64,000 nt of DNA, taken from contig DAONDY010000002.1 of NCBI GenBank assembly GCA_035402805.1, forward strand, positions 229,111 to 293,110, written 5' to 3'. The position numbers and the translations under genes were made by a program. This stretch comes from Candidatus Woesebacteria bacterium (GTDB lineage Bacteria; Patescibacteriota; Microgenomatia; UBA12405). The notes below the pieces were generated by a model. It searched no databases. It was not told where the DNA came from and worked only from the letters and a program-made list of their open reading frames with translations. Within the stretch, counting starts at the first letter, position 1, and each line of letters opens with the position of its first letter. Below are positions 3,610 to 63,779 of the stretch, piece by piece.

Positions 3610-5778
3610 TTAAACTATTTTTTTGCCCCATCTTTGTTGAGAAGTATTTATAAGTTTGGCTCGTTGTTGATTTTTACAGGAAAGTGGGGCTAAAGTAGTG
3701 GCATAAAAAGGTTCGGTAGTTTCTGAGTCTATAGAAAGTTTACAGACAATTTGATATTTCCCAATTTTAATTAAATCTTCAGGAGGGAAGGCAGGTCCAA
3801 ATTCTTTAGCTAAGATAAAAGCATCCTGATTACCAACTACAAAAGACATAATTGAACCGACGTTGCCTAAAATGGCGTCTTGGATAGTTTTGTCGAGCTG
3901 TGACATATATTGGTTGGCGACGATTAAATTTAATTTAAATTTACGAGCTTCAGAAAGAATTTTAATAAAAGCTTCAGTGGCAAAATTTTGGAACTCATCA
4001 ACGTAGAGATAAAAATCGGAACGATCTTCACTGGCTTGAAAAACACGATTCATAGCTGAGAGTTGGATTTGAGTAATTAACATGGCGCCTAATAGAGAAG
4101 AATTATCTTCACCAAGACGACCAGTGGATAAATCAGCAATTAAAATCTTCTTTTGATCCATTATTTCTTGGATATTTATTTTTGATTTAGCATGGGCGAC
4201 AGTATTTCTAATATTTGTTGAAGAAATAAACTGGCCAACTTTATTTAAGATAGGGGAAACAGCTTCGTTTTGGAACTTAGGATCCATGCGATCGAATTCA
4301 TTATGCCAAAAATTAATTAAGGTTTGATTGGTTAATTGAGAGACTGCTTTTTGGCGGAAATTTTTATTAGTTAAAATTTCAACGATATGGGTCATATCGG
4401 ATCCTGGAATATTGACTAGAGTTAAAACGGCATTTCTTAAGATATGTTCAAGACGAGGACCCCAAGAAATATTGCCATAAAGTTTTTTAAAAATTGAAAG
4501 AACACCAGAAGCAATCAATTCTTTTTGATTTTCATTTTTGGCCTCTAAAACATTGAGAGGATAGGCATATTCTGGATCAGCTGGATTAAAATAACAACAA
4601 TCGTTAATACGATTACTAGGAATGTAATCAAGGATGGTATTACATAAATCACCGTGAGGATCGATAACAGCAACGCCTCGACCTTTACGAATATCGTCAA
4701 TGGCCATATTGGCAATTAAAGTTGTTTTACCAGTACCAGATTTACCGATAATGTAGGTATGGCGGCGGCGATCTTCGCCTTGTTTAATACCAAAAATAGA
4801 GTCTTTATTTCTAAATTCAGTTTTAGCAAAAAAAGTAATTTCATTTTTTTGTTCAGGAGTGAGATTATCGGCAATTGGAAGATTTTCTGGCGGATCGGCA
4901 TAAAGTTTCTTACCCCAGGCAATATTGGGAAGCTTGGTATTTTGGTTGGGAAAATGCCAAATGGCGGCTAATTCTTCGGTATTAAATATTTGGCTTTTTA
5001 ACTTGGAATTAAATTTGCGAAGGCAAATAGATTCTCGAAGTTTCTTTTTAGTGAAGAAAACAGGGGTAAAATTTTTAATAAAATTACCACGAGGGTTGGT
5101 GTAGGCACCAAAAGAAGAGGAAACTGAAGAAATAAGTCCGGGATTATTGCTCAAAAGATTAATTTGGGTATAAAGACCGGGAAATTGAATTTTTTGTTCA
5201 AAAATGGCTTTGTCAGGATGGGCGGTACGAATATTTCTTTCTTTATCGACCAAAATGCCATTTTGAATGGTGCCAATAATTCCACTTTGCCAATTTTTGG
5301 GAGCACCGCTTAAAAGAATTTGGAAGAGAAAAAAATCTTTATTGTTATTAGACCTGGAAAGGGGAGCTAAAACGGAAGTTAAAGGATCGGTATCTTTAAA
5401 ATCTTTGGCGGTTTTAGTGGGGTAATCGTAAGATCGGCCTAAACCAAGCTGAGTAAAACTAATGGGTAATTGAGGATCGAGTTCTAAAAGGTAATCTTTG
5501 GTTTCTCGTAAAATAGCAGTGGAATACTGGGCGAGGATTTGGGAACGAAGAAACTCACTATTATTAGAAAGGGCGGCGATATAAAAATGAATTTGGCCAT
5601 CTTTCAAAACTATTTCTAACGAAACAATGGTTTTCTTTTTGCCAATTATTTTTTCAAAAAACGAAAGATTGGAAAATTGGGTGAAATTTGATAAAAGGGC
5701 AGACATCGATTCAAAAGTGTGTTCATTGGTTTGAGGTAGACGAACTTCAAAAATTGAAAGACTGGCAGTGTCAGACAT
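3610..5778 (-). CDS. FtsK/HerA/TraG-superfamily P-loop ATPase, resembling a type IV secretion coupling protein or DUF87
   Basis: Walker A GKSGTGKT is followed by DPHGDL. A Walker B-like YLYVDEFQNF and an ANQYMSQL tail are typical of TraD/VirD4/HerA-like ATPases. No N-terminal TM segments. Confidence 0.5.
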   Translation of the reverse strand: MSDTASLSIFEVRLPQTNEHTFESMSALLSNFTQFSNLSFFEKIIGKKKTIVSLEIVLKDGQIHFYIAALSNNSEFLRSQILAQYSTAILRETKDYLLELDPQLPISFTQLGLGRSYDYPTKTAKDFKDTDPLTSVLAPLSRSNNNKDFFLFQILLSGAPKNWQSGIIGTIQNGILVDKERNIRTAHPDKAIFEQKIQFPGLYTQINLLSNNPGLISSVSSSFGAYTNPRGNFIKNFTPVFFTKKKLRESICLRKFNSKLKSQIFNTEELAAIWHFPNQNTKLPNIAWGKKLYADPPENLPIADNLTPEQKNEITFFAKTEFRNKDSIFGIKQGEDRRRHTYIIGKSGTGKTTLIANMAIDDIRKGRGVAVIDPHGDLCNTILDYIPSNRINDCCYFNPADPEYAYPLNVLEAKNENQKELIASGVLSIFKKLYGNISWGPRLEHILRNAVLTLVNIPGSDMTHIVEILTNKNFRQKAVSQLTNQTLINFWHNEFDRMDPKFQNEAVSPILNKVGQFISSTNIRNTVAHAKSKINIQEIMDQKKILIADLSTGRLGEDNSSLLGAMLITQIQLSAMNRVFQASEDRSDFYLYVDEFQNFATEAFIKILSEARKFKLNLIVANQYMSQLDKTIQDAILGNVGSIMSFVVGNQDAFILAKEFGPAFPPEDLIKIGKYQIVCKLSIDSETTEPFYATTLAPLSCKNQQRAKLINTSQQRWGKKIV

Positions 5779-9173: not shown

Positions 9174-11627
9174 ATGAAAAAACAAAAAGGTATTTCCCAA
9201 ATTGCAGTGATGATTGTTATGTTAGTTTTGGCAATCGCACTTCCAATAACAACAAATTTAGTTAAAAAGAGTCAAGAGAATAGAAGTAAAGCGGCTACAT
9301 TTGATTGTACTATTTTTAATAAAGAAACGTGTTTACAAAACAAAGAGGAATGTTGGTTTAATGGCGGTAATTGTTACAATTTGATTGAGAATGGTTTCGA
9401 ATGTATTCATGATTCTATAATTGGTTTCCCTGGGAGTTGTAAAAGTGGTATTCAAAAAGATATGTATTGTGTTGGTTCTAAAAATGATTGTGTCGATCGG
9501 GATGCTAACAGAGTTATTGTTAGTGGAGAAATTAGTTGTTGGGATTGGGCGGTGCAAATTTGTGAATATGGAAGTTTTAAATCACTTTCTGGAGATAAAT
9601 GGGGAGAATCATCCTGCGATGATAACTCTTTATTAGAAGGAGGTACTTGTAGTGGAAATAAAACAGGTTCTTGTACATATACAAAATCTACACCGCCTCC
9701 AGCTTCAACTTGTTCTTCTGATTGTAAAGGTTGTAACCAACTTGAATGTTCTTATCAAACTGGTTGTACTTGGAGTTGGAATAATTATTCTTGTGTTAAA
9801 AATTCAGGAGATCAACCACCAATTACTAATCCTACTGGATCTGATCAAGGATGTATAAATAAAGGTGGTACTTGTAAAACTATTTCAAATGATACGTGTG
9901 GTAGTGGTTATACAACGTATATAGACGGTGGTTTATGTACTACAATTCCTGATCATAGTTATCAGTGTTGTGTTCCGTCAACTAATCCTAATCCTCAACC
10001 TGTTATTAGTAGTACTTGTGATAGTCAAACTGGGGCTGCCTGTATTAATTCTTATAGTGGAGTGACAAATGGTCTTACTTGTACTGGTAGTAGTGGAGGG
10101 ACTAATGGTGGAACGATAAATACTAGTTTTACTTGTTCTACTATTGGAAAGGTTTGTTGTGTACCAAAATCCACTACTGATACTCCTGTTATAAATACTC
10201 CTGTTACAGATATTACTTATGATTTTACGAATGCAGTTTGTGTTGACAGTAGTGATACATGTCGTGCTAATTATGGTACGGTTATTTCCGGAACGACTAA
10301 ATGTACAAATACATCAAATCCAATTTATTGCATAGTTGATACATGTAAGAAAAATGAAGGTGGTACTTGTAGAGATTTAACATCAAGCAATAATGTTTGT
10401 CCTAATGGTGAACATGTAGGTAATGGTTTGTGTCCTATACTTGGTAATTATTGTTGTAACCCTGCTTCTGATCCTACAGAGGGCGCAAATACTTATGCAT
10501 GTGTACAGGAGGGTGGTATCTGTTATGACTTAGGATTAAGTCAAAATGTTTGTCCTAATGGGGGAACAGCATCTACAACTAGTGGATGTCTTAATACAAA
10601 AGGTAAAAATTATCAATGTTGTGTCAAATCTACTAGTACTCCTACCACTCCTGTAGATAGTTGTACTGGTTTACTTGGAATGCAAAAATGTATTGGAGAT
10701 AATAAATACGTTAATTGTCAGATAGATACTAATAATTATTTAGGTAATCCTACATATAATCAAACAATATGGTGGACTATTAGTCCTCAAAGTTGTCCTA
10801 CTGGACAAGTTTGTACAAGTGGTAATATAGCAGGTTTTGTTTGTGGAGCTCCTACTCCAGTTACCCCTGTTACTCCAACTAGTGTTTGTATAAGCGGTAA
10901 TCAAAAATGTACTGCGACAAACAAATACTTTACTTGTAATAGTGGTCAATGGTCAACCTCAACAACTAATTGTCCATCTGGACAGATTTGTACAAATGAT
11001 GCCATTGGAACCAATGTTTGTAGAGCGACTGATTATACAGCTCCAAGTTTAAATCTGTTCTTTGCCGTTTCTGGAGTTAAAGCAGTTAATCCATGTTTTG
11101 GAGATCTTAGTTTCAAAGTTAATGTAGCTAAGGATGGTCAAGATGGAATGACTGGAAATGTAACAGCTACAGTCGTGGCTAATAAATTTAATTCTTTAGG
11201 TGATCAAGTATTTAAAATTAGTAATTTTGCTTTGGATAATACTTATGCCTTAACTGATAAAATTAAGGTTTTTGTCTCCGGAAAGAAAACATTGGCGACT
11301 TTGTATGGTAAGAATAACCAGGTTGGAGGATTTGGAGCTTTAAATAGCAGCCAAATACTGGTTTCCAGCTTAAGCAATGGCGCTATTTTGGATTTCTCTG
11401 GCTATCCAGTTCTCAATGGAGATGTTGGACAAGTAGGTCAATTGGGAGTTCAAGATGGAGTGGTTAATGCGGCTGATTTTGGTCATATGAAAAATCAGTG
11501 GGGAAAGACTTGCAGTGATGGTCAGAATTTAGAAGCTGACTTAAATGGAGACTGCCGAGTTGATACTTTTGATTTACAAATTTTGAAGAATGCAAATGCA
11601 GAACAATATGCCCAAAAAACATTTTAA
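9174..11627 (+). CDS. Large secreted/anchored cysteine-rich modular protein with a C-terminal dockerin-like module
   Basis: N-terminal hydrophobic anchor. Many repeats of a Cys module (GGTC...C.NG...C...CC[VN]P). The C-terminus contains DGVVNAADF...ADLNGDCRVDTFDLQILK, resembling tandem dockerin Ca-binding repeats. Confidence 0.55.
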   Translation: MKKQKGISQIAVMIVMLVLAIALPITTNLVKKSQENRSKAATFDCTIFNKETCLQNKEECWFNGGNCYNLIENGFECIHDSIIGFPGSCKSGIQKDMYCVGSKNDCVDRDANRVIVSGEISCWDWAVQICEYGSFKSLSGDKWGESSCDDNSLLEGGTCSGNKTGSCTYTKSTPPPASTCSSDCKGCNQLECSYQTGCTWSWNNYSCVKNSGDQPPITNPTGSDQGCINKGGTCKTISNDTCGSGYTTYIDGGLCTTIPDHSYQCCVPSTNPNPQPVISSTCDSQTGAACINSYSGVTNGLTCTGSSGGTNGGTINTSFTCSTIGKVCCVPKSTTDTPVINTPVTDITYDFTNAVCVDSSDTCRANYGTVISGTTKCTNTSNPIYCIVDTCKKNEGGTCRDLTSSNNVCPNGEHVGNGLCPILGNYCCNPASDPTEGANTYACVQEGGICYDLGLSQNVCPNGGTASTTSGCLNTKGKNYQCCVKSTSTPTTPVDSCTGLLGMQKCIGDNKYVNCQIDTNNYLGNPTYNQTIWWTISPQSCPTGQVCTSGNIAGFVCGAPTPVTPVTPTSVCISGNQKCTATNKYFTCNSGQWSTSTTNCPSGQICTNDAIGTNVCRATDYTAPSLNLFFAVSGVKAVNPCFGDLSFKVNVAKDGQDGMTGNVTATVVANKFNSLGDQVFKISNFALDNTYALTDKIKVFVSGKKTLATLYGKNNQVGGFGALNSSQILVSSLSNGAILDFSGYPVLNGDVGQVGQLGVQDGVVNAADFGHMKNQWGKTCSDGQNLEADLNGDCRVDTFDLQILKNANAEQYAQKTF

Positions 11628-11643: not shown

Positions 11644-12249
11644 ATGGAAAAAAATAATAAAATATTCAAAATTTTTATCCCGATAATTGCAGTAATAGTA
11701 ATTTTTGAAAGTGTGATGTTGGTTTCTGGCTTAGAAAAAAATAGTGGAGTAGTCAAAGAATCAACCAATTCGGCTGAAGTGAAAAAAAATGAGGTAGTTA
11801 ATAATGCTTTTGATTTGGTTTTTTCAACTGATAAAAAAGAAATGGTAGTTGAAAAAAATTATCAAGTTAAGCTACAGGCTTTAGTTAAAGAACAAAGAAC
11901 AATAGATGCCATTGATGTGGCTATTAAATATGACGCTAAGAGTCTAGACATCACGGGTTTAGTTTTTGACGAGAAACTACCAAAGCCGTTCATTGGTCAG
12001 GTATTAAAAACTGATGGAATGATAGTAGTTAAATATTTAATAGAGACTAAGCAGGGGATGACTTTTAATGTTAATGATGTTATTTCTTTGGTTAGTTTTA
12101 ATGTTAAAGCAAAAACAGCTGGTAATTATCAATTTGAGATTGCTACTGGTAATGAAGATAAAAAATTTGCTACTATGTTTATAGAAACTACTTCGGTTAA
12201 GGCTTTGCCTTTTTCAAGTAATAAATTAGAAATTAATGTAACTAAATAA
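11644..12249 (+). CDS. Cohesin-like domain protein with an N-terminal TM anchor
   Basis: N-terminal TM. KYDAKSLDITGLVFDE and LVSFNVKAKTAGNYQFEI segments match the cohesin domain pattern (YDpnvLev..., tikFkvksg). Confidence 0.5.
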   Translation: MEKNNKIFKIFIPIIAVIVIFESVMLVSGLEKNSGVVKESTNSAEVKKNEVVNNAFDLVFSTDKKEMVVEKNYQVKLQALVKEQRTIDAIDVAIKYDAKSLDITGLVFDEKLPKPFIGQVLKTDGMIVVKYLIETKQGMTFNVNDVISLVSFNVKAKTAGNYQFEIATGNEDKKFATMFIETTSVKALPFSSNKLEINVTK

Positions 12250-12251
12250 AA

Positions 12252-12962
12252 ATGAAAAGGACTGTCCAAAATTTGTTGATTTTAAGCGCATTTTTATTGT
12301 TATCTACTAAGGTGGCAGCAGCAGCAGATCCAAGATTTTCATTAAATCCAGCCACTGGAAATTATAAGGTGAATGATACTTTTACGGTGACTATAGCAAT
12401 AGATTCAGCTGGCCAGGTGGTTGGTGCTGCTGATGCAGTCGGTACTTTTGATTCAAATATATTAGAGTTAACTTCGTTAAATGCGGCGACGGATATGGTT
12501 TTTAATTCAACTCAAACTGGTGGTTCTTGTATGCCAAGCAGTAGTTCTGAATGGGCCAGTGGTAAATTTTCAATTACTTGTTACTCTAATATGAGTTCGG
12601 GCGATGAAGCAGTTAGTGGAAATTTAGCAGTATTGACTTTTAAAGCCAAGACAACTGGAACTGCTAATGTTAATTTTACTTGTAATGGAGGAGCTGGTGA
12701 TTCAAATATAATTCAATCAGCAACTGTAAAAGATCTAATTGTTTGTTCAGCTAATGGCAGTGGCTCTTATACAATTTCTGCGGGATCTAGCACTTCAACG
12801 GTGACTTCGACTCCAACTCCGACAATAAAAGCTTCAACAACAACTACTACAACAACCACAACAACTGAATTACCTCAGACTGGAGGAATTGCAACAACCT
12901 TGGGTTTGATTGTTTTTGGAGCGATTAGTTTAGCTTCGGCATTGTTTTTAAAATTCTTATGA
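12252..12962 (+). CDS. Cohesin-like domain surface protein with Thr-rich linker and LPXTG sortase anchor
   Basis: Signal peptide. Cohesin-like segments (FTVTIAIDSAGQVVGAADAVGTFDSNILELTSL; LAVLTFKAKTTGTANVNF). A Thr10 linker, LPQTG, and a hydrophobic tail. Confidence 0.55.
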   Translation: MKRTVQNLLILSAFLLLSTKVAAAADPRFSLNPATGNYKVNDTFTVTIAIDSAGQVVGAADAVGTFDSNILELTSLNAATDMVFNSTQTGGSCMPSSSSEWASGKFSITCYSNMSSGDEAVSGNLAVLTFKAKTTGTANVNFTCNGGAGDSNIIQSATVKDLIVCSANGSGSYTISAGSSTSTVTSTPTPTIKASTTTTTTTTTTELPQTGGIATTLGLIVFGAISLASALFLKFL

Positions 12963-13603
12963 AGGGTAAAGTCAATTTAAAAACGATTATTATTCTGGCA
13001 ATATTGGTTTTAGTAATTATTCTGTCTGTTTTGGTGGTAAACACGGCCAAGACTTTTATAAGTGGAGCGGCGGCTGATTATGAGCCACAAAATTTAATGG
13101 CCGTTCCTAAAGAGGATGGAAAAACAGCAGTGGTTTCTTGGACAACTGATAAAGAAGTAAGAGCATCTATTTTTTATGGAACTAATATGGCTAGCTTACT
13201 TTTAATGGCTGAAGATATAGAGGCAACAATTGATCATAATATTTTATTAACAAATTTAAAAAGCGACACAACTTATTATTACAAAATAGTGATAGATAAC
13301 GATAATATTTTTGATAATGGTGGATTAATGTATAACTTCAAAACTAATGCTAGCTTAGAACCCGTAGTTACAATTCAGCCTACCTTAATTCCAACGATAG
13401 CAGCGTCTTCTAGTGGTTCTTCAGCTTGTGATAGAACTACTGATTATAATAAAGATGGGACTGTTAACAGCATAGATTATATTTCTTGTACTAAAGGGGC
13501 AATTACTCCTGGAGTCAGTGATGTGTGTGCTGGTGATTATAATAAAGATGGAGTTACTAATAGTCTTGATAGAATAAAGTGTTTACAAGAGACCAAAAGA
13601 TAG
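12959..13603 (+). CDS. FN3-like domain protein with a C-terminal tandem dockerin-like module
   Basis: N-terminal TM. A purple-acid-phosphatase-N/FN3-like segment (AVVSWTTDKE...TTYYYKI). C-terminal DYNKDGTVNSIDY and GDYNKDGVTNSLDRIKCL repeats (dockerin type I-like). Confidence 0.5.
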   Translation: MKGKVNLKTIIILAILVLVIILSVLVVNTAKTFISGAAADYEPQNLMAVPKEDGKTAVVSWTTDKEVRASIFYGTNMASLLLMAEDIEATIDHNILLTNLKSDTTYYYKIVIDNDNIFDNGGLMYNFKTNASLEPVVTIQPTLIPTIAASSSGSSACDRTTDYNKDGTVNSIDYISCTKGAITPGVSDVCAGDYNKDGVTNSLDRIKCLQETKR

Positions 13604-35660: not shown

Positions 35661-36638
35661 TTGGCAAAACTGTCCATCATGGTAAGATTGTTTATGGAAA
35701 ATGATTTAGATATTTTGATTAGACGATTTCTAGAACATTTGGAAATTGAAAAGAACTGTTCAAGGTTAACAATTAGAAACTATCAACATTATTTAGAAGT
35801 TTTGGTTCATTTTTTATCAGAAGAGAATAAGGAAAAAAGATTAACAGTGAACTGCATAACTTCAGACGTAGTGAGAAGGTTCAGGTTGTTTTTAGCTAGA
35901 CAGAAGGGAAGTATTGGAGAAATGAAATTGGTGACGCAGGGTTATTATGTTATTGCTTTAAGGTCATTTTTAAAATGGTTAATAAAAAACGACTATAAAG
36001 TGTTGCAGCCGGAAAAATTAGATGTTCCCAAAGTTAAGGATCATTCTTTAAAGTTTTTAGACGGGGATCAGATGAACAGGCTTTTAGTGCAACCTCTCCC
36101 CTCCTCAAAAAATGGTTTTAGAGACAGAGCAATTTTAGAGCTTTTATTTTCAACTGGATTACGTGTTTCGGAGTTAGTTCATCTTAATCGAGATCAAATT
36201 AATTTAAAAACGAGAGAATTTGGAGTGATCGGTAAAGGTGGTCGAGCGAGAGTGGTTTTCATCTCAAAACAAGCGGCTGATCATGTCGCAAAATATTTAA
36301 TGAGCCGAGAAGATAAGTATAAGCCCCTATTTATAAGAATTTTAAGAACAAATGAAATTCCAGTTAGCGATGAAGCTGTAAGATTAACAGCCAGGTCAGT
36401 GCAAAGGTTGGTAAAGCATTATGTAAAGTTGGCCAATTTGCCAGTGGAGGCAACACCTCATACTTTAAGACATTCAATGGCTACTGACATGTTAAGGTCA
36501 GGTGCCGATCTTAGGTCGATTCAGGAAATTTTGGGTCATAAAAACATTGCTACGACGCAGATTTATACCCACGTAACCAATGCAGGATTACGCGAGGTTC
36601 ACGAAAAATTTCATAGCGGCAATCAACCTAAAAAATAA
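35661..36638 (+). CDS. xerD: XerD/XerC-like tyrosine site-specific recombinase
   Basis: Catalytic R...HxxR...Y region (ATPHTLRHSMATDMLRSGADLRSIQEILGHKNIATTQIYTHV) and an N-terminal SAM-like core-binding domain. Confidence 0.8.
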   Translation: MAKLSIMVRLFMENDLDILIRRFLEHLEIEKNCSRLTIRNYQHYLEVLVHFLSEENKEKRLTVNCITSDVVRRFRLFLARQKGSIGEMKLVTQGYYVIALRSFLKWLIKNDYKVLQPEKLDVPKVKDHSLKFLDGDQMNRLLVQPLPSSKNGFRDRAILELLFSTGLRVSELVHLNRDQINLKTREFGVIGKGGRARVVFISKQAADHVAKYLMSREDKYKPLFIRILRTNEIPVSDEAVRLTARSVQRLVKHYVKLANLPVEATPHTLRHSMATDMLRSGADLRSIQEILGHKNIATTQIYTHVTNAGLREVHEKFHSGNQPKK

Positions 36639-56089: not shown

Positions 56090-57829
56090 ATGAATGATCC
56101 TGCCTCAAAAATATACAAGAACTTAAAGGATGCCCTTTTAGAAAAAGGTTTGATTAATCAGGAAAAATACGAGGAGATTAATTTAAGACAACTAAAAACC
56201 GGGGAAACAGAGGAAGAAGTTATCAAGGCGTTGAGATTGGTTTCAGATATTGATTTTGTTAAATGCAAAGCTTTGTTTTTGAGGGTACCTTACGTTGATT
56301 TAGAAACGATTGGTTTTTCGCCGGAAGCTTTGACTTTAGTACCGGAAAGTGTGGCTCAAAAATATAAAATAGTTCCTTACGGCCTGGATACAAAAAATAA
56401 AGTTTTGTCTATCGCTATGGTTAATCCATTAGATTTGGAAACCATTGAATTTTTGGAAAAAAAGACAGATTTGAAAATAAAGGTAGCAATTTCTTTAGAG
56501 AAGCAAATTAACTCTTATATTAAAGAAAAATACATTCGAGAAAAAAATATCACTTCTGAAGTGACTAGGGCTTTAAATGAAAGAAAGGATGACGAAAAGG
56601 TAACAAAGTTAGCTGATGAAAAGGTGGCGGTTGAAGCTCCAGTGGCAAAAATAGTATCGACTATTTTGGAATATGCTGTTAAATCTAGAGCTTCAGATGT
56701 CCATATTGAACCTCAAGAAGATAATGTCAGAATTAGATATCGAATAGATGGTATTTTGCAGGAAAAATATTTATTGCCGAGAAATGTTCATGACGCAGTC
56801 GTGTCGAGAATTAAAATCTTATCTAACTTAAAGATCGATGAAAAGAGAATCCCTCAAGATGGACGATTTTTCTTTTCAGCTGATGGCAATGATGTAGATT
56901 TACGTATATCAACTTTACCGACAACTTACGGTGAAAAAGTCGTTATGCGTTTACTTAAAAAAGCTCAGAAAGTACCAACATTACAGGAATTGGGTTTAAG
57001 AGGTATGGCTCTAAAAAATTTGATGAATTCGATTCAAAGACCTCATGGAATCATTATTGTTTGTGGACCAACTGGTTCAGGAAAAACAACGACTTTATAT
57101 TCGGTATTGGATATTGTGGCGACATCAAAAGTAAATGTAGTAACAGTGGAAGATCCAGTTGAATATCAAATGAAAGGAGTTAATCAGGTTCAGGTTAACG
57201 TTCAGGCCGGTTTAACTTTTGCTTCGGCGTTACGCTCTTTTTTACGTCAAGATCCTAACGTAATCATGGTTGGAGAAATTCGTGATCAAGAGACTGCAGA
57301 TTTGGCTGTTAATGCTGCCTTAACTGGACATTTAGTTTTTTCAACTTTACATACAAATGATGCGTCTGGCGTTCCGCCAAGATTATTGGATATGGGAGTG
57401 GAACCGTTTTTGCTGACATCATCTTTGAATTGTGTGGTTGGACAGAGAGTTTTACGAAAAGTTTGTAAAAACTGTGTACAAGAAATGGAAATTCCATCGG
57501 AAAGTATTAGAGAACTTAAAGAAACACTGGGTCCTATTTACAATATGATCGAGGATAAGTTTGCCAAAGATGGTAAAAAATTAACGTTACCCAAAATTGT
57601 TGGATGTGAGAAGTGTAATAATACTGGATATTTAGGGCGAGTTGCTATATATGAGGTAATGCCAATTACAGAAAAATTAAGTAAATTAATTGTGGAAAAG
57701 GCAGCAGCTTCGGATATTCAGAAACAGGCAATGGAAGAAGGAATGTTGACGATGAAACAGGATGGTTATGTAAAAGTTTTAGAAGGAGTAACTAGTATGG
57801 ATGAAGTTATTAGAGTTGCTCAATATTAG
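56090..57829 (+). CDS. pilB: Type IV pilus assembly ATPase PilB (GspE family)
   Basis: GPTGSGKTTTLYS Walker A, tetracysteine CKNC...CEKC. Confidence 0.9.
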   Translation: MNDPASKIYKNLKDALLEKGLINQEKYEEINLRQLKTGETEEEVIKALRLVSDIDFVKCKALFLRVPYVDLETIGFSPEALTLVPESVAQKYKIVPYGLDTKNKVLSIAMVNPLDLETIEFLEKKTDLKIKVAISLEKQINSYIKEKYIREKNITSEVTRALNERKDDEKVTKLADEKVAVEAPVAKIVSTILEYAVKSRASDVHIEPQEDNVRIRYRIDGILQEKYLLPRNVHDAVVSRIKILSNLKIDEKRIPQDGRFFFSADGNDVDLRISTLPTTYGEKVVMRLLKKAQKVPTLQELGLRGMALKNLMNSIQRPHGIIIVCGPTGSGKTTTLYSVLDIVATSKVNVVTVEDPVEYQMKGVNQVQVNVQAGLTFASALRSFLRQDPNVIMVGEIRDQETADLAVNAALTGHLVFSTLHTNDASGVPPRLLDMGVEPFLLTSSLNCVVGQRVLRKVCKNCVQEMEIPSESIRELKETLGPIYNMIEDKFAKDGKKLTLPKIVGCEKCNNTGYLGRVAIYEVMPITEKLSKLIVEKAAASDIQKQAMEEGMLTMKQDGYVKVLEGVTSMDEVIRVAQY

Positions 57830-57849
57830 TTAATATAAATTAAAAAAAT

Positions 57850-58920
57850 ATGAATATAAAAATGGAGGAAATTTTAAAATTTGCGGTGGCAAATAAGGCT
57901 TCTGATATTCATCTTATTTCTGATGTTCCCCCAAAAGTTAGGGTTAATGGCGATCTCTTAAATATATCTGGTTTTGAAAATACCGACAAAAAAGGAATTA
58001 GAGAAATGGTTTTATCTCTTTTGGATGAAAAACAACTGGAGGCATTTAATAAGGAAAAAGAATTAGACTTTTCTTTTGATGCAGTGGATGGAACTCGTAT
58101 TAGAGCTAACGTTTATTTTCAAAAAGGTGAACCAGCTTGTGCCTTAAGATTAATAGCTTCGAAAATCCCCTCTTTTGAAGAACTAGGAATTCCAGATATT
58201 TTGAAAACTTTTACTAAATATAAACAAGGGTTTGTATTAGTGACTGGTCCAACAGGTCACGGAAAATCAACCACAGTAGCAGCTATGTTGGAAGAAATTA
58301 ATGCAACTAGAGGTGGACACATTGTGACAATAGAAGATCCAATAGAATATTTGATTAAGCCGGAAAAGGCAATTATTTCTCAAAGGGAGATGGGCGGAGA
58401 TACTAACAGTTTTGATTTGTCTTTGAGATCGTGTCTTAGACAGGATCCTAATGTGGTATTTTTGGGAGAAATGAGAGATTTGGAATCAACATCTTCGGCT
58501 TTGACAATTGCGGAAACTGGTCATTTAGTTTTTTCAGTTTTACACACCAATTCAGCTGCCCAGACTATAGATAGAATTATTGATGTTTTTCCAGCTGACG
58601 CTAAAGATCAAATTAGAGTTCAGTTATCAACGGTAATTACGGCTATTATTTCACAAAGATTAGTGCCAGCGATTGATGGAGGCAGAATCCCAGTTTTTGA
58701 AATTTTAATAGCGACTCCAGCTGTTAGAAATGTGATTAGGGAAGGAAAATCTTTTATGATTGATAATATTATCCAAACTAGCTCGGATATTGGAATGATA
58801 AGTTTTGATGCTTATATGGCCAAACTAGTTTTAGATGGTAAAGTCTCTGAGGAAGTGGCAATGAGTTATTCGACAAATCCAGTTGAATTACAGGGTAAAT
58901 TAAGAAGACAAAAAATATGA
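57850..58920 (+). CDS. pilT: Twitching motility ATPase PilT
   Basis: GPTGHGKSTT, and a short PilT-like length with no N-terminal extension. Confidence 0.85.
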   Translation: MNIKMEEILKFAVANKASDIHLISDVPPKVRVNGDLLNISGFENTDKKGIREMVLSLLDEKQLEAFNKEKELDFSFDAVDGTRIRANVYFQKGEPACALRLIASKIPSFEELGIPDILKTFTKYKQGFVLVTGPTGHGKSTTVAAMLEEINATRGGHIVTIEDPIEYLIKPEKAIISQREMGGDTNSFDLSLRSCLRQDPNVVFLGEMRDLESTSSALTIAETGHLVFSVLHTNSAAQTIDRIIDVFPADAKDQIRVQLSTVITAIISQRLVPAIDGGRIPVFEILIATPAVRNVIREGKSFMIDNIIQTSSDIGMISFDAYMAKLVLDGKVSEEVAMSYSTNPVELQGKLRRQKI

Positions 58921-60128
58921 CGAAATTTTTTTATAAAGCTAAAGATTGGAATGGAAAAGCCATAAAGGGGGTGTTGGATTCTCAAGATAAAAAAAGTGCC
59001 TTAGAGTCAATAAAAAGTGGAGGCTTGATACCATTAGCAATTATGGCTGAAAGTACTTCAGTTTTTAATGATATTTATAAAAGATTGTTTTCAAAAATTA
59101 GTCTAAAACAAATTTCTAATTTCACTAGACAGTTGTCAACAATGATGAATTCCGGTTTGGCTTTAACCGATGCTTTAGCACTATTAAAAAATCAAACGGA
59201 TAAAAAAAGTTTAATGTTTGAAATTTTAGATTACACTTTAACGACGGTTCAGGGCGGGCATTCTTTGGCGGATGGTTTGGGAAAATATAAAAAGAATTTT
59301 GGTGAGGCCTATATTGCTTCAATTGAGGCTGGTGAGGAAGGAGGAGTTTTAGAGGAAGTTTTGACAAAATTAGCTGATAACTTGGAAAAACAAAATGATT
59401 TTGCTAGTAAAGTAAAAGGAGCAATGATTTATCCAATAATAGTCATTGTCGGCATGATTGCAGTGGTAATTATTATGATGATTTTTGTCATTCCTAAATT
59501 AATGGGTCTATATTCTGATTTTGGAGCGAAAATGCCCGCATCAACTCAATTATTGATGGATATATCAGGATTCATGACTAAATTTTGGTTTTTGATTCCG
59601 ATTATAGTTGTTGGCGTTTTTGCTTTTTTTAAGATTGGCGGACAAAATGCTGATTTTAGGTTGAAAAGAGATGTTTTAAAATTAAAAATTCCTATCATAG
59701 GAGTTCTGAACCAAAAAACTATTTTATCAACGACAATAAGAACTATGTCGATGCTTTTGTCGGCGGGTATTCCTTTAGTAGAGGCACTTAAAATTGTTTC
59801 TAGTGTGGCGGCTAATGAACTTTTTAGAGGAGCCTATTTAAAAATTTCGGAAAGAGTTCAAAAAGGTTTTTCGATTGCTAATTCTTTTGAAGAAACTGGG
59901 GTTTTTCCAGTTATTGTTAATCAAATGGTGGCAACTGGAGAAGCGACGGGAAAATTGGATACAGTTTTATTAAAAGTTTCTGATTATTTTTCGGCTGAAG
60001 CTGAACAATCGGTAAAATCATTAACTTCAGCTATTGAACCAATAATCATGATTCTTTTGGGATTAGGGGTGGCATTTTTGGTCGTGGCGGTTTTAATGCC
60101 AATTTATAATTTGACTTCCAGTATGTAG
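58917..60128 (+). CDS. pilC: Type IV pilus inner-membrane platform protein PilC (GspF)
   Basis: Two GspF repeats, a 3-TM topology, and pilB/pilT synteny. Confidence 0.85.
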   Translation: MTKFFYKAKDWNGKAIKGVLDSQDKKSALESIKSGGLIPLAIMAESTSVFNDIYKRLFSKISLKQISNFTRQLSTMMNSGLALTDALALLKNQTDKKSLMFEILDYTLTTVQGGHSLADGLGKYKKNFGEAYIASIEAGEEGGVLEEVLTKLADNLEKQNDFASKVKGAMIYPIIVIVGMIAVVIIMMIFVIPKLMGLYSDFGAKMPASTQLLMDISGFMTKFWFLIPIIVVGVFAFFKIGGQNADFRLKRDVLKLKIPIIGVLNQKTILSTTIRTMSMLLSAGIPLVEALKIVSSVAANELFRGAYLKISERVQKGFSIANSFEETGVFPVIVNQMVATGEATGKLDTVLLKVSDYFSAEAEQSVKSLTSAIEPIIMILLGLGVAFLVVAVLMPIYNLTSSM

Positions 60129-60206
60129 TTTCAGTAGCTGTCACTTGACAGCTTAATTTTAGTGGTGAATAATGAATTAATAGCATTAAATATTTATTAG
60201 GAAAAA

Positions 60207-60887
60207 ATGAAAAACAAGATAAAAGAAATGAAGGGTTTTACCCTAGTGGAACTCTTAATCGTTATCGCTTTAATCGCGATTTTATCAGTGGCAGTGTTGG
60301 CAACAATTAATCCTATTGAACAAGCAAATAAAGCAAAAGATTCAACAACACAGAATGACGCAGCTGAAATGATGAATGCTTATGAGAGGTATTACGCTAA
60401 TGCTCAGAGATATCCATGGATGGAATATACCGATGGATCAAGTATTACTGTTGATAGTGCGGTTAACTATTCTTCAAAACAAGTTGGTTTTGGTATTTGT
60501 TATGGTAATAAAGGAACTGTTGATTCAGATGAAGTTGGAAGTTGTAACACTACCGGTACTGAGATGGGTTTGTTAGTGGAAACTGATGAGCTCAAATCTT
60601 CTTTCGCTAATAAGACTGAATTCCAAAGTGCTAATGACGAAGATCAATTGTGGGCAATTAAATTAGCTGGTTCTGGTGGTGGAATCTACGTTTGTTATAT
60701 TCCAAAGGCAAAAGCCAATCGACAATTGACTGATAAGTTGTATTGTATTGATTCAACTAATTCAACTTTAATTAAAGTTAGTGCTAGCGCTACTGATAGT
60801 TGTGTGGCTTTACCAACTACCGATGCGGGTTGGTCAACACCAACTTTAACTGGAGAAGTTGGTATGTTTAGATGTGTACCAGAGTAA
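60207..60887 (+). CDS. Type IV pilin (likely major pilin)
   Basis: Class III signal MKNKIKEMKG|FTLVELLIVIALIA. Strong terminator immediately downstream. Confidence 0.8.
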   Translation: MKNKIKEMKGFTLVELLIVIALIAILSVAVLATINPIEQANKAKDSTTQNDAAEMMNAYERYYANAQRYPWMEYTDGSSITVDSAVNYSSKQVGFGICYGNKGTVDSDEVGSCNTTGTEMGLLVETDELKSSFANKTEFQSANDEDQLWAIKLAGSGGGIYVCYIPKAKANRQLTDKLYCIDSTNSTLIKVSASATDSCVALPTTDAGWSTPTLTGEVGMFRCVPE

Positions 60888-60908
60888 ACTCTAAATTAGA
60901 GATAATTA

Positions 60909-60935
60909 AAACCCCGCTTAAAGGCGGGGTTTTTT
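60909..60935 (+). terminator. Rho-independent terminator after the pilin gene
   Basis: aaccccgc-ttaaag-gcggggtt followed by tttttt. A second weaker hairpin and T-run lie at about 60934-60972. Confidence 0.8.
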
Positions 60936-60985
60936 CGGCCAGAGGCCGATCAGCCTGTGACTGAGGTTTTTTGTTAAAATGATTT

Positions 60986-61780
60986 ATGGAAATTTTATTG
61001 GCAATAATTACTTTTGTTTTAGGGTTATGTTTCGGGAGTTTTGTGAATATGTTGATTTATCGAACAGCGATTAAATATAAATTGGATAAAAAAAAATTTA
61101 AGACAAATAAGAACCGAAGTTTTTGTGATTACTGTGGAAGACAATTGAAATGGTATGAAAATATACCCGTGTTTTCTTGGTTGTTTTTAAAAGGGAAAAC
61201 TAAATGTTGCCATAAAAAACTATCAGTCTCCTACCCTATTGTGGAACTTTTAATGGGAATTATTTTTGTAATTTTTAATTTTCAATTTTCAATTTTCAAT
61301 CAAATTAAAATTTTCAATTTTCAATTTTTATTAGGATTAGTGATTGTTGTTTTGTTGGTTTTTAGTGCGGCATTTGATTGGAAATATATGATTTTGCCTG
61401 ATTTTTCGACAATTATATTAATAATAGTGGCTTTTTTGGGAGTTGTCTTTGATGAAACTAACATAATCCCCTATTTACTGTCATCATTAGTGGCTGCTGG
61501 TTTTTTGTTAATTTTAAATTTAATTACCAAAGGTAAAGGAATGGGAATGGGAGATGTAAAATTAGCCATTTTTATGGGATTATTTTTGGGATATCCAAAT
61601 ATTATTGTAGCTTTTTATGTGGCTTTTATAATTGGAGCAATATACGGATTAGGGTTGATAATTTTAAAAAAGGCCAATAAAAAAAGTCAGCTACCATTTG
61701 GACCATTTTTAATAATAGGAACATTAACGTCTTGGTGGTTTGGACAAAAAATTGTAGAATTAATAAAAATTATATTATGA
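60986..61780 (+). CDS. pilD: Prepilin peptidase PilD (A24 family) with an N-terminal zinc-binding CxxC pair
   Basis: CDYCGRQL...KCCHKKL and a polytopic TM region containing an aspartyl protease motif. Contains a 7-nt tandem repeat (61279-61324). Confidence 0.8.
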   Translation: MEILLAIITFVLGLCFGSFVNMLIYRTAIKYKLDKKKFKTNKNRSFCDYCGRQLKWYENIPVFSWLFLKGKTKCCHKKLSVSYPIVELLMGIIFVIFNFQFSIFNQIKIFNFQFLLGLVIVVLLVFSAAFDWKYMILPDFSTIILIIVAFLGVVFDETNIIPYLLSSLVAAGFLLILNLITKGKGMGMGDVKLAIFMGLFLGYPNIIVAFYVAFIIGAIYGLGLIILKKANKKSQLPFGPFLIIGTLTSWWFGQKIVELIKIIL

Positions 61781-62436
61781 GAAAAAATGGTTTTACTTTA
61801 GTGGAAATATTGATTGTGATGGTAATTTTGGTAATGATAGCAATGATGATGATTGGAACTTTTAACGCAATAGGAGTGACCAATAAAGGTAGAGACGCTA
61901 GAAGAAAAAAGGATTTAAACAGGATTAAAATTGCTTTTGAAGAATATTTTAATGATAAGGGTGAATTTCCAACCGGTACTTTATTGGTTGACTTAAAAGA
62001 TAAAAAAAATTGTGGAAGTTCAAGTGTTTTTGCACCATATTTAAATCCTTGGCCTTGTGACCCAAATGGTAACCCTTATTATATACATGTGGAAAATAAC
62101 CAGTTTAGAATAATTACTAACTTGGAAAACAAAAAAGATAAAGATATCCCTGAGGGATGGTATATAAAAAATGATTTTAATTTTCCGGTTTTAAGTTTAG
62201 CTACTAATGATGCAAATTACGGTGTTTCTAGCGCCAATATTTTATGGTATGACGGTTTAGTACGTGATTATTCTATGTGTAATGTAACTGAATGTTTCAA
62301 TGGTGATGAAGGCTGTAAAGATGTTACTCACAGTGGTGGTTGTTTTGGTAATGATTGTTTTTATAGTAATAGCAGTCTAGGAGGCTGTATTCCTGAATGC
62401 TCGGTTCCCTGTTGTGGTGATAAATGTAATCAATAA
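61777..62436 (+). CDS. Type IV pilin-like protein (Cys-rich C-terminus)
   Basis: MRKNG|FTLVEILIVMVIL prepilin N-terminus. The start is taken at the internal Met. Confidence 0.65.
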   Translation: MRKNGFTLVEILIVMVILVMIAMMMIGTFNAIGVTNKGRDARRKKDLNRIKIAFEEYFNDKGEFPTGTLLVDLKDKKNCGSSSVFAPYLNPWPCDPNGNPYYIHVENNQFRIITNLENKKDKDIPEGWYIKNDFNFPVLSLATNDANYGVSSANILWYDGLVRDYSMCNVTECFNGDEGCKDVTHSGGCFGNDCFYSNSSLGGCIPECSVPCCGDKCNQ

Positions 62437-62453
62437 AAATAGTAAAATGACTT

Positions 62454-62894
62454 ATGAAAAAAAATTTTAATGTTTTTGAATTATTAATAATAATTATTGT
62501 TATATCTGTACTATCATTTATAACTTATCGTCAATTTGTTTTGGCCCAAGAAAAATCCAGAGACTTACAGAGAAGATCTGATTTACATGAATTTTCGAAA
62601 ATAATCAAATTATATTATGGTGATTATAAAAAATTACCAGATGAGGAATTAATCAATAATCTTTGGGGAAAAAGTTTTATAGACAGTGGTTATACTTATG
62701 CTGATTCGGTTCCAAAAGAGAAAAATGGGGAAAAGGAATATTGTTATCAAATTGGAGAGGATGGTCTTTCCTTTAAAATATCGGCTGAGTTTGAAAATAA
62801 AAATGATCCGGAGTGCAAAACAGAGGGGCAGTTGTGCGGCGGAGTTAAATATTGCTATACTGATATTGTCTATGTTAATAAAACATCAAAGTAA
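62454..62894 (+). CDS. Pilin-like protein with an atypical prepilin N-terminus
   Basis: MKKNFNVFELLIIIIV hydrophobic N-terminal helix with Glu5. Confidence 0.5.
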   Translation: MKKNFNVFELLIIIIVISVLSFITYRQFVLAQEKSRDLQRRSDLHEFSKIIKLYYGDYKKLPDEELINNLWGKSFIDSGYTYADSVPKEKNGEKEYCYQIGEDGLSFKISAEFENKNDPECKTEGQLCGGVKYCYTDIVYVNKTSK

Positions 62895-63300
62895 AGGTAT
62901 TTTTGGTTTTAGTTTAATAGAGCTTTTAGTAGTTATTTCAATTATTGGAGTATTAACAGCGGTATTAACAGCTAATTTTATGGGGATGAGAGAAAGAGCT
63001 AGAGATGCTCAAAAAATTCAAGATCTAAATTCGATGAAGAGTGCCTTGAGGATATACTATAATGATCATCAAAGTTATCCAGCCACACAGGCTGATTTTG
63101 TTAAAGATGTTGGGACGAGTAATTATATGCCAAATTTAATGGGTATTGGCTTTAGTTATAATTATTTGGTTACTTCGGGTGGAGATGGTTTCGTTTTAAC
63201 AGCTCCATTGGAATCTGGAGCTGGAACTGATGATACTGACTCTCAAACTAAATGTGGGCTTGGAGCTTCTGATAAAATTTTTGCAGTTTGTGCAAATTAA
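62872..63300 (+). CDS. Type IV pilin-like protein
   Basis: KGIFG|FSLIELLVVISIIGVL. The start is taken at the internal Met (MLIKHQSKG). Confidence 0.6.
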   Translation: MLIKHQSKGIFGFSLIELLVVISIIGVLTAVLTANFMGMRERARDAQKIQDLNSMKSALRIYYNDHQSYPATQADFVKDVGTSNYMPNLMGIGFSYNYLVTSGGDGFVLTAPLESGAGTDDTDSQTKCGLGASDKIFAVCAN

Positions 63301-63302
63301 TA

Positions 63303-63779
63303 AAAATGAAAAAAATAAAAAATAATTTAGGGTTTACATTAGTTGAATTATTGGTAGTGATCTCAATCATGGGAATTTTAACGGTTATTTCGGTGGCTTC
63401 TTTTACTAGTGCCCAAATTAAAGCTCGTGACTCTCAAAGAAAATCTGATTTAGATCAGACTGCAAAAGCTTTAATGTTGTATTACGGTGATACTGGGACA
63501 TTTCCGGCTGAAGGTGATTTTAAATTTGGATATGAAGAAGATAATGGTTTTAAAATTGGAGAAACTATTTATATGAGAAAAACACCTAAAGATCCGAAAG
63601 ATTCTAGTGATTATGTCTATGTTTATAAAACTGATGGTAAGTCCTTTAATTTATTTGCTAATTTAGAAAACAAAAAAGACTCCCAATGTAATGGTTCTTA
63701 TGCTATTACTGGTGTGGGTAGTACCTTTTGTTATGGTGTTTCTAGTCCAAATTCATTAGTTAAAAGTTGGTTAGAATAA
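63303..63779 (+). CDS. Type IV pilin-like protein
   Basis: MKKIKNNLG|FTLVELLVVISIMGIL. Confidence 0.7.
   Translation, partial: KMKKIKNNLGFTLVELLVVISIMGILTVISVASFTSAQIKARDSQRKSDLDQTAKALMLYYGDTGTFPAEGDFKFGYEEDNGFKIGETIYMRKTPKDPKDSSDYVYVYKTDGKSFNLFANLENKKDSQCNGSYAITGVGSTFCYGVSSPNSLVKSWLE

Follow-up and report, generated by a model that had tools for sequence, protein, structure and literature searches.

The trans-defensins (alpha-, beta- and big defensins) arose exclusively in animals according to a 2020 review (PMC7203481), and only cis-defensins have been reported from bacteria (PMC11561630). In Coprinopsis cinerea, the GH24 lysozymes LYS1-5 and the DLPs carry an N-terminal 12-cysteine 'defensin-like domain', which was modelled as a helix and two strands, was discussed with the CS-alpha-beta (cis) defensins, and could be deleted without measurable effect on lysis (PMC6461984). 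Beyond these defensin-like/lysozyme fusions, a search of the literature for beta-defensin-like domains in bacteria, Patescibacteria or fungi yielded nothing relevant. Here we describe a gene at positions 9174-11627 of a 64,000-nucleotide stretch (hereafter, the window) of contig DAONDY010000002.1 from a Candidatus Woesebacteria bacterium, which encodes a cysteine-rich, dockerin-bearing protein with four tandem six-Cys modules. It is fairly likely that these modules have a beta-defensin-like fold, as indicated by a structure prediction together with profile comparisons. Less firmly, though we still consider it somewhat probable, the protein is a cohesin-docked, hypervariable, modular disulfide-rich adhesin on the surface of this member of the candidate phyla radiation (CPR), and its defensin-like modules bind the envelope of a target cell. 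A life of attachment to other cells is assumed for CPR bacteria, the adhesins of which are largely unknown.

The open reading frame is intact, begins with ATG and encodes 817 residues, including 62 cysteines (7.6%), every one of which lies downstream of a hydrophobic leader. The leader is followed by a Cys-rich stretch, the four six-Cys modules, two other Cys modules, a beta-sandwich and a dockerin (Table 1). An identical NCBI entry is named 'dockerin type I domain-containing protein [Candidatus Woesebacteria bacterium]', and relatives come from metagenome bins of Woesebacteria and Shapirobacteria type. Against Pfam and NCBIfam, the full-length protein matched nothing except the dockerin, a phmmer search of the PDB gave only weak dockerin matches, and the N-terminal Cys-rich region (aa 45-207) had no Pfam match even at E<=10. 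An earlier note on this DNA had called the protein giant, which is an overstatement for 817 residues. Its outline of the C-terminal half was accurate: the further Cys modules and proline/threonine (P/T)-rich linker that it placed ahead of a beta-rich region are found at aa 497-557 and 572-616, the beta-rich region is predicted by AlphaFold2 (AF2) to be an all-beta domain, and the dockerin tail matches PF00404 at aa 760-806.

The four modules follow the pattern C-x6-7-C-x7-12-C-x10-17-C-x6-9-CC-(V/N)-(P/K), with G-G/A-x directly before the second cysteine (GGTC, GAAC, GGTC and GGIC in modules 1 to 4). A profile hidden Markov model (HMM) built solely from the modules of other proteins, with the window rows left out, recovered exactly four full copies at independent E-values of 8e-13 to 1e-5, and none of 500 residue shuffles of aa 41-620 scored positive, as against 36.9 bits for the real protein. 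The six cysteines are invariant across 28 aligned modules from the window protein and its homologues. A segment at aa 355-386 contains GTVISGTTKC, which resembles the short-loop modules of two relatives (P0018 and P0020), and its standing as a fifth, degenerate copy is doubtful. No second module-bearing gene was found within the window, and none of the four modules matched a Pfam family, even at E<=10. The earlier note had counted at least four copies, which the HMM bears out (the peptides it quoted lie at aa 396-432 and 446-487), and had assigned them to no standard domain family. That holds insofar as Pfam offers no match, and needs amending in that relatives do exist and that AF2 and profile searches find the modules beta-defensin-like. 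Its suggestion of a novel disulfide-rich surface domain survives in similar measure: the domain is recurrent and uncurated, and dockerin, LPXTG cohesin and leader point to the surface, while its likeness to defensins tells against novelty. Judged by sequence, then, the four modules are a recurrent, uncurated disulfide-rich domain.

An AF2 model of module 3, computed with the 28-module alignment as input, has a pLDDT of 85.5 and a short N-terminal helix (residues 3-8) followed by beta strands (11-14 and 38-42, with a bridge at 27-28), and thus has in prediction the short helix and antiparallel beta-sheet of the beta-defensin fold. Comparison of an AlphaFold module model with the PDB by Foldseek, a check suggested in the earlier note, gave defensin-type peptides as the sole matches (15 of 15), at E-values of 1.5 or more. 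Non-significant Foldseek E-values are common for peptides this small. The best match was human beta-defensin-1 (hBD1), with TM scores of 0.59 (query) and 0.71 (target), an rmsd of 2.0 Å and 25% identity over 40 columns, and it was followed by hBD3, AvBD11, two sea-anemone defensin-like toxins and then alpha-defensins. Foldseek found no match for the module among viral structures (BFVD). From the cysteine register with hBD1 and the 2.0 Å superposition, we infer that the disulfides would pair C1-C5, C2-C4 and C3-C6.

Profile searches led to the same group of peptides. When all PDB sequences were searched with the 28-module profile (hmmsearch), 13 of 14 matches were beta-defensins, with beta-defensin-1 and gallinacin-11 at the top and all six cysteines in register. 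One match of this profile, the hydrophobin 1r2m, had partial coverage, was gone with a 148-module profile, and was rejected. With the larger profile, 17 of 18 matches were either annotated as defensin or defensin-like or were the tick carboxypeptidase inhibitor, which we take to have the beta-defensin fold; the best match was platypus DLP-2 (E=0.023), and the top ranks were held by platypus defensin-like peptides, beta-defensin-1, defensin-BvL, tick carboxypeptidase inhibitor and gallinacin-11. The module profile also matched, at E=0.22 and level with defensins, residues 17-53 of PDB entry 24ne_A, a Cys-rich segment (SCEAKEGECIDSSCGTCTRDILSDGLCENKPGKTCC) near the N-terminus of a 'luciferase' of known structure, which may be another unrecognised copy of the fold.

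The similarity exceeds what cysteine spacing alone would give, because loop-shuffled controls never reached the real score in an hhalign comparison of the modules with a beta-defensin alignment. This alignment was compiled by hand, and its hBD1 and DLP-2 rows agree with the PDB output. All six cysteines were aligned (P=0.0019, probability 14%), and the score of 15.6 lay 4 standard deviations above the 9.1 +/- 1.6 of 100 shuffled, Cys-kept controls, none of which reached it. The signal stems largely from two glycines, one at position -2 of C2 (144 of 148 modules and 8 of 10 beta-defensins; the defensin GxC motif) and the other at -2 of C4 (79 of 148 modules and 10 of 10 beta-defensins). Set against the beta-defensin spacing C-x4-8-C-x3-5-C-x9-13-C-x4-7-CC, the window modules have the same cysteine order and terminal CC, and their loops 1 and 4 (6-7 and 6-9 residues) fit, but their loops 2 and 3 are too long. 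Membership in the curated beta-defensin families was rejected, as the modules have no Pfam match, are not cationic and are not free peptides. Overall, similarity of fold is likely and homology is unproven, and the 817-residue protein probably works with the same fold as beta-defensins. Clear assignment of the modules to a well-known family, which the earlier note had named as grounds for abandoning its view, did not emerge, the link to beta-defensins being made up of weak statistics and a predicted structure.

The distribution of the module bears on both its origin and its function. When 1.84 billion representative proteins were searched in full with HMMER, 96 clusters had the module at E<=1e-3, 17 of them at E<=1e-10. 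Of 120 proteins examined (HMMER matches, homologues from the first search and a few cluster members), 52 have a CPR-type leader. Eukaryotic carriers include the chytrids Cladochytrium replicatum and Rhizophlyctis rosea and the diplonemid Namystynia karyoxenos, and a PGRP3-like protein of the hemichordate Saccoglossus kowalevskii also bears the module. Six copies are present in a myxobacterial lipoprotein on a Polyangiaceae contig (L004, 5001-6014), and a further carrier is encoded on a contig with archaeal-type replication genes (L005, 3392-4675). The neighbours of the latter look archaeal (an RFC-type clamp loader, a PRC barrel and a Cas4/Dna2-like protein). Median loop lengths are 6/11/13/8 in CPR modules and 6/6/9/7 in modules of leaderless proteins, the eukaryotic ones included, the latter being near the 6/4/9/6 of beta-defensins. 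With a probability that we put well below even, the six-Cys module could be truly homologous to the animal beta-defensin/big-defensin domain, in which case trans-defensins would not be an animal invention and would either derive from an older microbial envelope-targeting domain or have a common ancestor with it. On this same reading, that older domain would be scattered in CPR bacteria, Myxococcota, possibly archaea, chytrids, diplonemids and a hemichordate peptidoglycan recognition protein (PGRP), fused to peptidoglycan hydrolases or adhesins. A recurrent, uncurated family of this kind, present in bacteria, fungi and protists, often joined to cell-wall hydrolases and matching beta-defensins in cysteine pattern, GxC motif and predicted fold, would make the origin of this immune-peptide superfamily directly testable.

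The fusion partners of the module are mostly cell-wall hydrolases. Among 91 module-bearing cluster representatives, the co-occurring Pfam domains were NlpC/P60 (four times), Phage_lysozyme, Phage_lysozyme2 and GH25 (twice each), Amidase_2 (PGRP), GH19 and Peptidase_M15_4, together with Dockerin (seven times) and Big_2 (three times). Because the module is repeatedly fused to muramidases, amidases and endopeptidases in other organisms, an envelope-binding function is suggested. The same fusions to lytic enzymes could instead speak for modules that serve as antimicrobial effectors. The protein would then be a polyprotein or a tethered array of defensin-like peptides and would damage the envelope of a host cell or a competitor, either in situ or once proteolysis at the P/T-rich linkers had freed the peptides. 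Antimicrobial defensins are indeed the best matches by structure and by profile, and positive charges as high as +7 occur among modules of other proteins. Human beta-defensins carry a strong positive charge; in the four window modules the net charge is -1 to 0, no dibasic processing sites flank them, and the protein has a dockerin suited to stable attachment and no lytic domain, all of which renders this alternative quite improbable. A binding role is likelier than a free antimicrobial role because the window modules are uncharged, embedded and without flanking processing sites.

Comparison of closely related strains revealed extensive mosaicism. Between the window protein (P0001) and its close relative P0002, the N-terminus is 92% identical (200 of 217 residues) and the C-terminus 99% identical (244 of 246), while in place of the middle 354 residues (aa 218-571; window 9825-10886), the stretch with defensin-like modules 1 to 4 and the first of the CBM19-like modules, P0002 has 526 residues of unrelated Cys modules. 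Another relative, P0003, has exactly the last 642 residues of P0002 and differs from it after the leader. Across the family, leader, beta-sandwich and dockerin are constant and the module complement varies. Near-identical strains have exchanged the whole middle between flanks that stay 92-100% identical, which suggests cassette-like recombination. Diversifying pressure on the distal part of a surface protein is expected to leave just such a combination of constant flanks and varying modules. The free variation of module number and type between strains, along with the tandem arrangement with P/T linkers and the weakness of every defensin-similarity statistic, could also be taken to mean that the modules are purely structural, rigid beads of a stalk resembling EGF-like repeats that hold the CBM19-like or N-terminal region outward and bind no ligand, the defensin likeness being convergent. 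We consider this unlikely, since a spacer role alone would hardly account for the repeated, independent joining of the module to cell-wall hydrolases across bacteria, fungi, protists and an animal PGRP, and since the modules have in common with defensins conserved surface glycines and similarity beyond the cysteines.

The 40 residues of the leader are 80-90% identical among relatives, the rest of the protein being mosaic, and the leader consensus, M-x-KQKG-ISQI-x-VM..MLVLAIALP-x-TT-x-LV-x-KSQENRSKA, is far better conserved than the mature protein (N-termini of P0002-P0023). A looser form, a transmembrane helix followed by LVQKNQENRS-x-A(A), heads the 52 leader-bearing proteins mentioned above, most of which bear modules (many of P0029-P0110). 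A canonical prepilin or type IV pilin signal was considered and rejected, as the leader matches no Pfam or NCBIfam model, with nothing for N_methyl (PF07963) or TIGR02532 at E<=1, and reads KG|ISQIA, without the Glu at +5 of the methylation motif G|F-T-L-x-E; three pilins in the same window do match N_methyl. We infer for it a role in export or anchoring. It may act as a Sec signal that is cleaved at a fixed S-K-A site, or else as a sorting signal dedicated to CPR bacteria. The beta-sandwich (approximately aa 620-745) is present in the whole family (22 homologues) and is predicted with pLDDT values mostly above 90. The aa 490-817 model gave only TEAD-type Foldseek matches in the PDB (TM 0.12-0.15, rmsd 10-15 Å), which are meaningless, and this domain has no meaningful PDB counterpart. 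The dockerin exceeds the Pfam cut-off of 22.9 bits, and its second calcium-binding segment is DLNGDCRVDTFD.

Between the defensin-like modules and the beta-sandwich lie two modules with the common cysteine pattern C-x-C-NKY-x-C...CP(S/T)GQ(I/V)CT...VC, separated by a P/T linker. The second of these (aa 572-616) exceeds the cut-off of 20.1 bits for PF03427 (CBM_19), only when scanned alone, over profile positions 23-58 of 61. The earlier note had not recognised a chitin-binding family, a judgement with which this match is at odds for aa 572-616. The first (aa 497-557) has no Pfam match of its own and was modelled by AF2 with low confidence.

Three genes directly downstream complete a cassette, and encode proteins of 201 residues, 236 residues (with LPQTG and a hydrophobic tail) and 214 residues (fn3-like, with a dockerin of its own). 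NCBI lists the 236-aa product of ORF 12252-12962 as a 'cohesin domain-containing protein'; PF00963, an LPXTG anchor (PF00746) or both are present in most of its homologues, several of these share contigs with homologues of the Cys-rich protein, and the syntenic Shapirobacteria counterpart carries PF00963. Gene order is identical in a Shapirobacteria genome (S2, EF-Ts, RRF, M50 protease, Cys-rich dockerin protein, 201-aa protein, cohesin, fn3-dockerin protein, S21, YqeY, YbeY). A search for related loci with the C-terminal sequence returned a single Shapirobacteria contig. The 201-aa protein, which has no annotation, is the most conserved gene product of the cassette, at 80-83% identity between Woesebacteria and Shapirobacteria bins. 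It is a possible divergent cohesin: PF00963 is present in one distant homologue, a BLASTP test for relationship to cohesin was negative, and hhalign to the neighbouring cohesin family was weak (P=0.005, probability 7%). Upstream of the cassette, at 3610-5778 (-), lies a gene for a TrwB/HerA-like coupling ATPase, which also stands beside the syntenic cassette in Shapirobacteria. Cohesin and dockerin together are the hallmark of cellulosomes, and with one module above the CBM_19 chitin-binding threshold it might be supposed that the protein is part of a cellulosome-like, polysaccharide-degrading complex in which the Cys modules bind an insoluble substrate such as chitin for feeding rather than cell-cell attachment. 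This seems to us very unlikely, because Pfam and NCBIfam scans found no catalytic domain, glycoside hydrolases included, in any of the four cassette genes, the cohesin domain is single with no scaffoldin repeats, and the cassette is set among ribosomal and housekeeping genes.

For the cohesin-docked adhesin that we favour, the following arrangement can be envisaged. Surface exposure is indicated because the protein has a dockerin, a neighbouring LPXTG cohesin and an N-terminal leader. The protein would be exported and its dockerin would bind the sortase-anchored cohesin, from which it would hang on the cell wall, with the conserved beta-sandwich forming the base. The variable distal part would be the business end, in which the four defensin-like (trans-defensin-like) modules and two CBM19-like modules contact the target envelope. 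The former would serve as compact, disulfide-locked binding modules and not as free antimicrobials, and their likely target would be cell-envelope material, whether peptidoglycan, chitin-type N-acetylglucosamine polymers or an associated lipid or glycan.

Several observations weigh against this proposal. The window cohesin copy itself falls below Pfam thresholds, no sortase-like TLxTC motif was found within the window, and a leader that remained as an uncleaved anchor would alter the proposed topology. With respect to the defensin-like fold, window loops 2 (7-12 residues) and 3 (10-17) go beyond the beta-defensin ranges of 3-5 and 9-13, and curated beta-defensin models matched neither the four modules at E<=10 nor the 91 related proteins at E<=1e-3 (Pfam). 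No statistic that links the modules to defensins is significant alone (Foldseek E>=1.5, hmmsearch E>=0.023, hhalign probability 14%), and AF2, having been trained on defensin structures, may force the fold onto a matching cysteine pattern. If the likeness is convergent, there would still be a small disulfide-rich domain family that is new, and cohesin and dockerin put to a non-cellulosomal use in CPR bacteria, a useful but modest outcome. As an adhesin, a conserved cohesin-dockerin cassette presenting a rapidly reshuffled array of Cys modules would be a concrete candidate for host recognition in CPR bacteria.

A complete type IV pilus locus, the genes of which are included in Table 1, occupies positions 56090-63779 of the window, and a tyrosine recombinase gene is located at 35661-36638 (+).

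Table 1. Features of the Cys-rich dockerin protein, its cassette and the pilus locus, in window coordinates
Feature	Position	Strand	Basis or remark
Whole gene, Cys-rich dockerin-bearing surface protein	9174..11627	+	ORF; 62 Cys; identical NCBI Woesebacteria protein
Conserved N-terminal leader, aa 1-40 (MKKQKGISQIAVMIVMLVLAIALPITTNLVKKSQENRSKA), hydrophobic helix and QENRSKA motif	9174..9293	+	80-90% identity across P0001-P0023
N-terminal Cys-rich region, aa 45-207, 19 Cys, CxxxCxxC...CxW motifs	9306..9794	+	Cys positions; 92% identical in relative P0002
Beta-defensin-like six-Cys module 1, aa 224-270	9843..9983	+	HMM without window rows, independent E-value 8e-13
Beta-defensin-like six-Cys module 2, aa 280-333, long loops	10011..10172	+	HMM without window rows, independent E-value 5e-7
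Possible degenerate fifth module, aa 355-386, without CC pair	10236..10331	+	Weak HMM match, independent E-value 0.18-0.35
Beta-defensin-like six-Cys module 3 (the one modelled), aa 389-432	10338..10469	+	HMM independent E-value 1e-5; AF2 pLDDT 85.5; Foldseek defensins
Beta-defensin-like six-Cys module 4, aa 441-487	10494..10634	+	HMM independent E-value 2e-6
Six-Cys module, aa 497-557, 25-residue insertion, presumed CBM19-like	10662..10844	+	Cys pattern common to next module
CBM19-like module, aa 572-616	10887..11021	+	PF03427 E=1.5e-6, 28.5 bits; AF2 pLDDT 87-93
Conserved beta-sandwich domain, ~aa 620-745	11031..11408	+	AF2 pLDDT mostly >90; kept in 22 homologues
Type I dockerin, aa 760-806	11451..11591	+	PF00404 E=6e-8, 33.2 bits; weak PDB dockerin matches
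201-aa membrane-anchored beta protein	11644..12249	+	80-83% identical in Shapirobacteria; same position there
LPXTG-type (LPQTG) cell-wall-anchored cohesin protein, likely docking partner	12252..12962	+	NCBI name; homologues PF00963/PF00746
Second dockerin protein, fn3-like Pur_ac_phosph_N and dockerin	12959..13603	+	PF16656 E=1.8e-7, PF00404 E=9e-7; syntenic in Shapirobacteria
PilB-type ATPase	56090-57829		
PilT-like ATPase	57850-58920		
PilC	58917-60128		
Pilin	60207-60887		
Prepilin peptidase A24	60986-61780		
234-aa pilin, unusually Cys-rich (5.2%)	61732-62436		
Another pilin	63288-63779		

The window protein resembles known cohesin-dockerin systems, both cellulosomal and non-cellulosomal (LPXTG/sortase), in its C-terminal type I dockerin and in the LPXTG-type cohesin encoded two genes downstream, and differs from them in that enzymes and a scaffoldin with several cohesins are absent, that a putative adhesin rich in cysteine is the cargo, and that the organism belongs to the CPR. 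With CBM19 (PF03427) it has in common a module, aa 572-616, that exceeds the Pfam gathering score, although the profile match is partial, the protein is bacterial, and chitin binding is a prediction. The defensin-like/lysozyme fusions of Coprinopsis, the nearest precedent, are alike in kind to the module fusions of chytrids, the diplonemid and metagenomic eukaryotes, a likeness drawn from their description.

Also built from more than one beta-defensin fold are AvBD11 and the tick carboxypeptidase inhibitor (PDB matches 6qet, 6qeu and 2k2z), in which the fold is likewise used in tandem, and also as a module for protein binding and not for antimicrobial action; these are small two-domain animal proteins, whereas the window protein is bacterial and has four modules together with other domains and a dockerin. 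With vertebrate beta-defensins and the C-terminal domain of big defensins, the modules share the C-C-C-C-CC order, loops 1 and 4 of the same length, and the glycine at -2 of C2 and often that of C4, and the predicted helix and beta-sheet superpose on those of hBD1 at 2.0 Å. They depart from beta-defensins in their longer loops 2 and 3 and in a net charge near 0, and also in context: beta-defensins are free secreted peptides of approximately 40 residues, whereas the window modules are four tandem domains inside an 817-residue bacterial protein that would be displayed on the cell surface.

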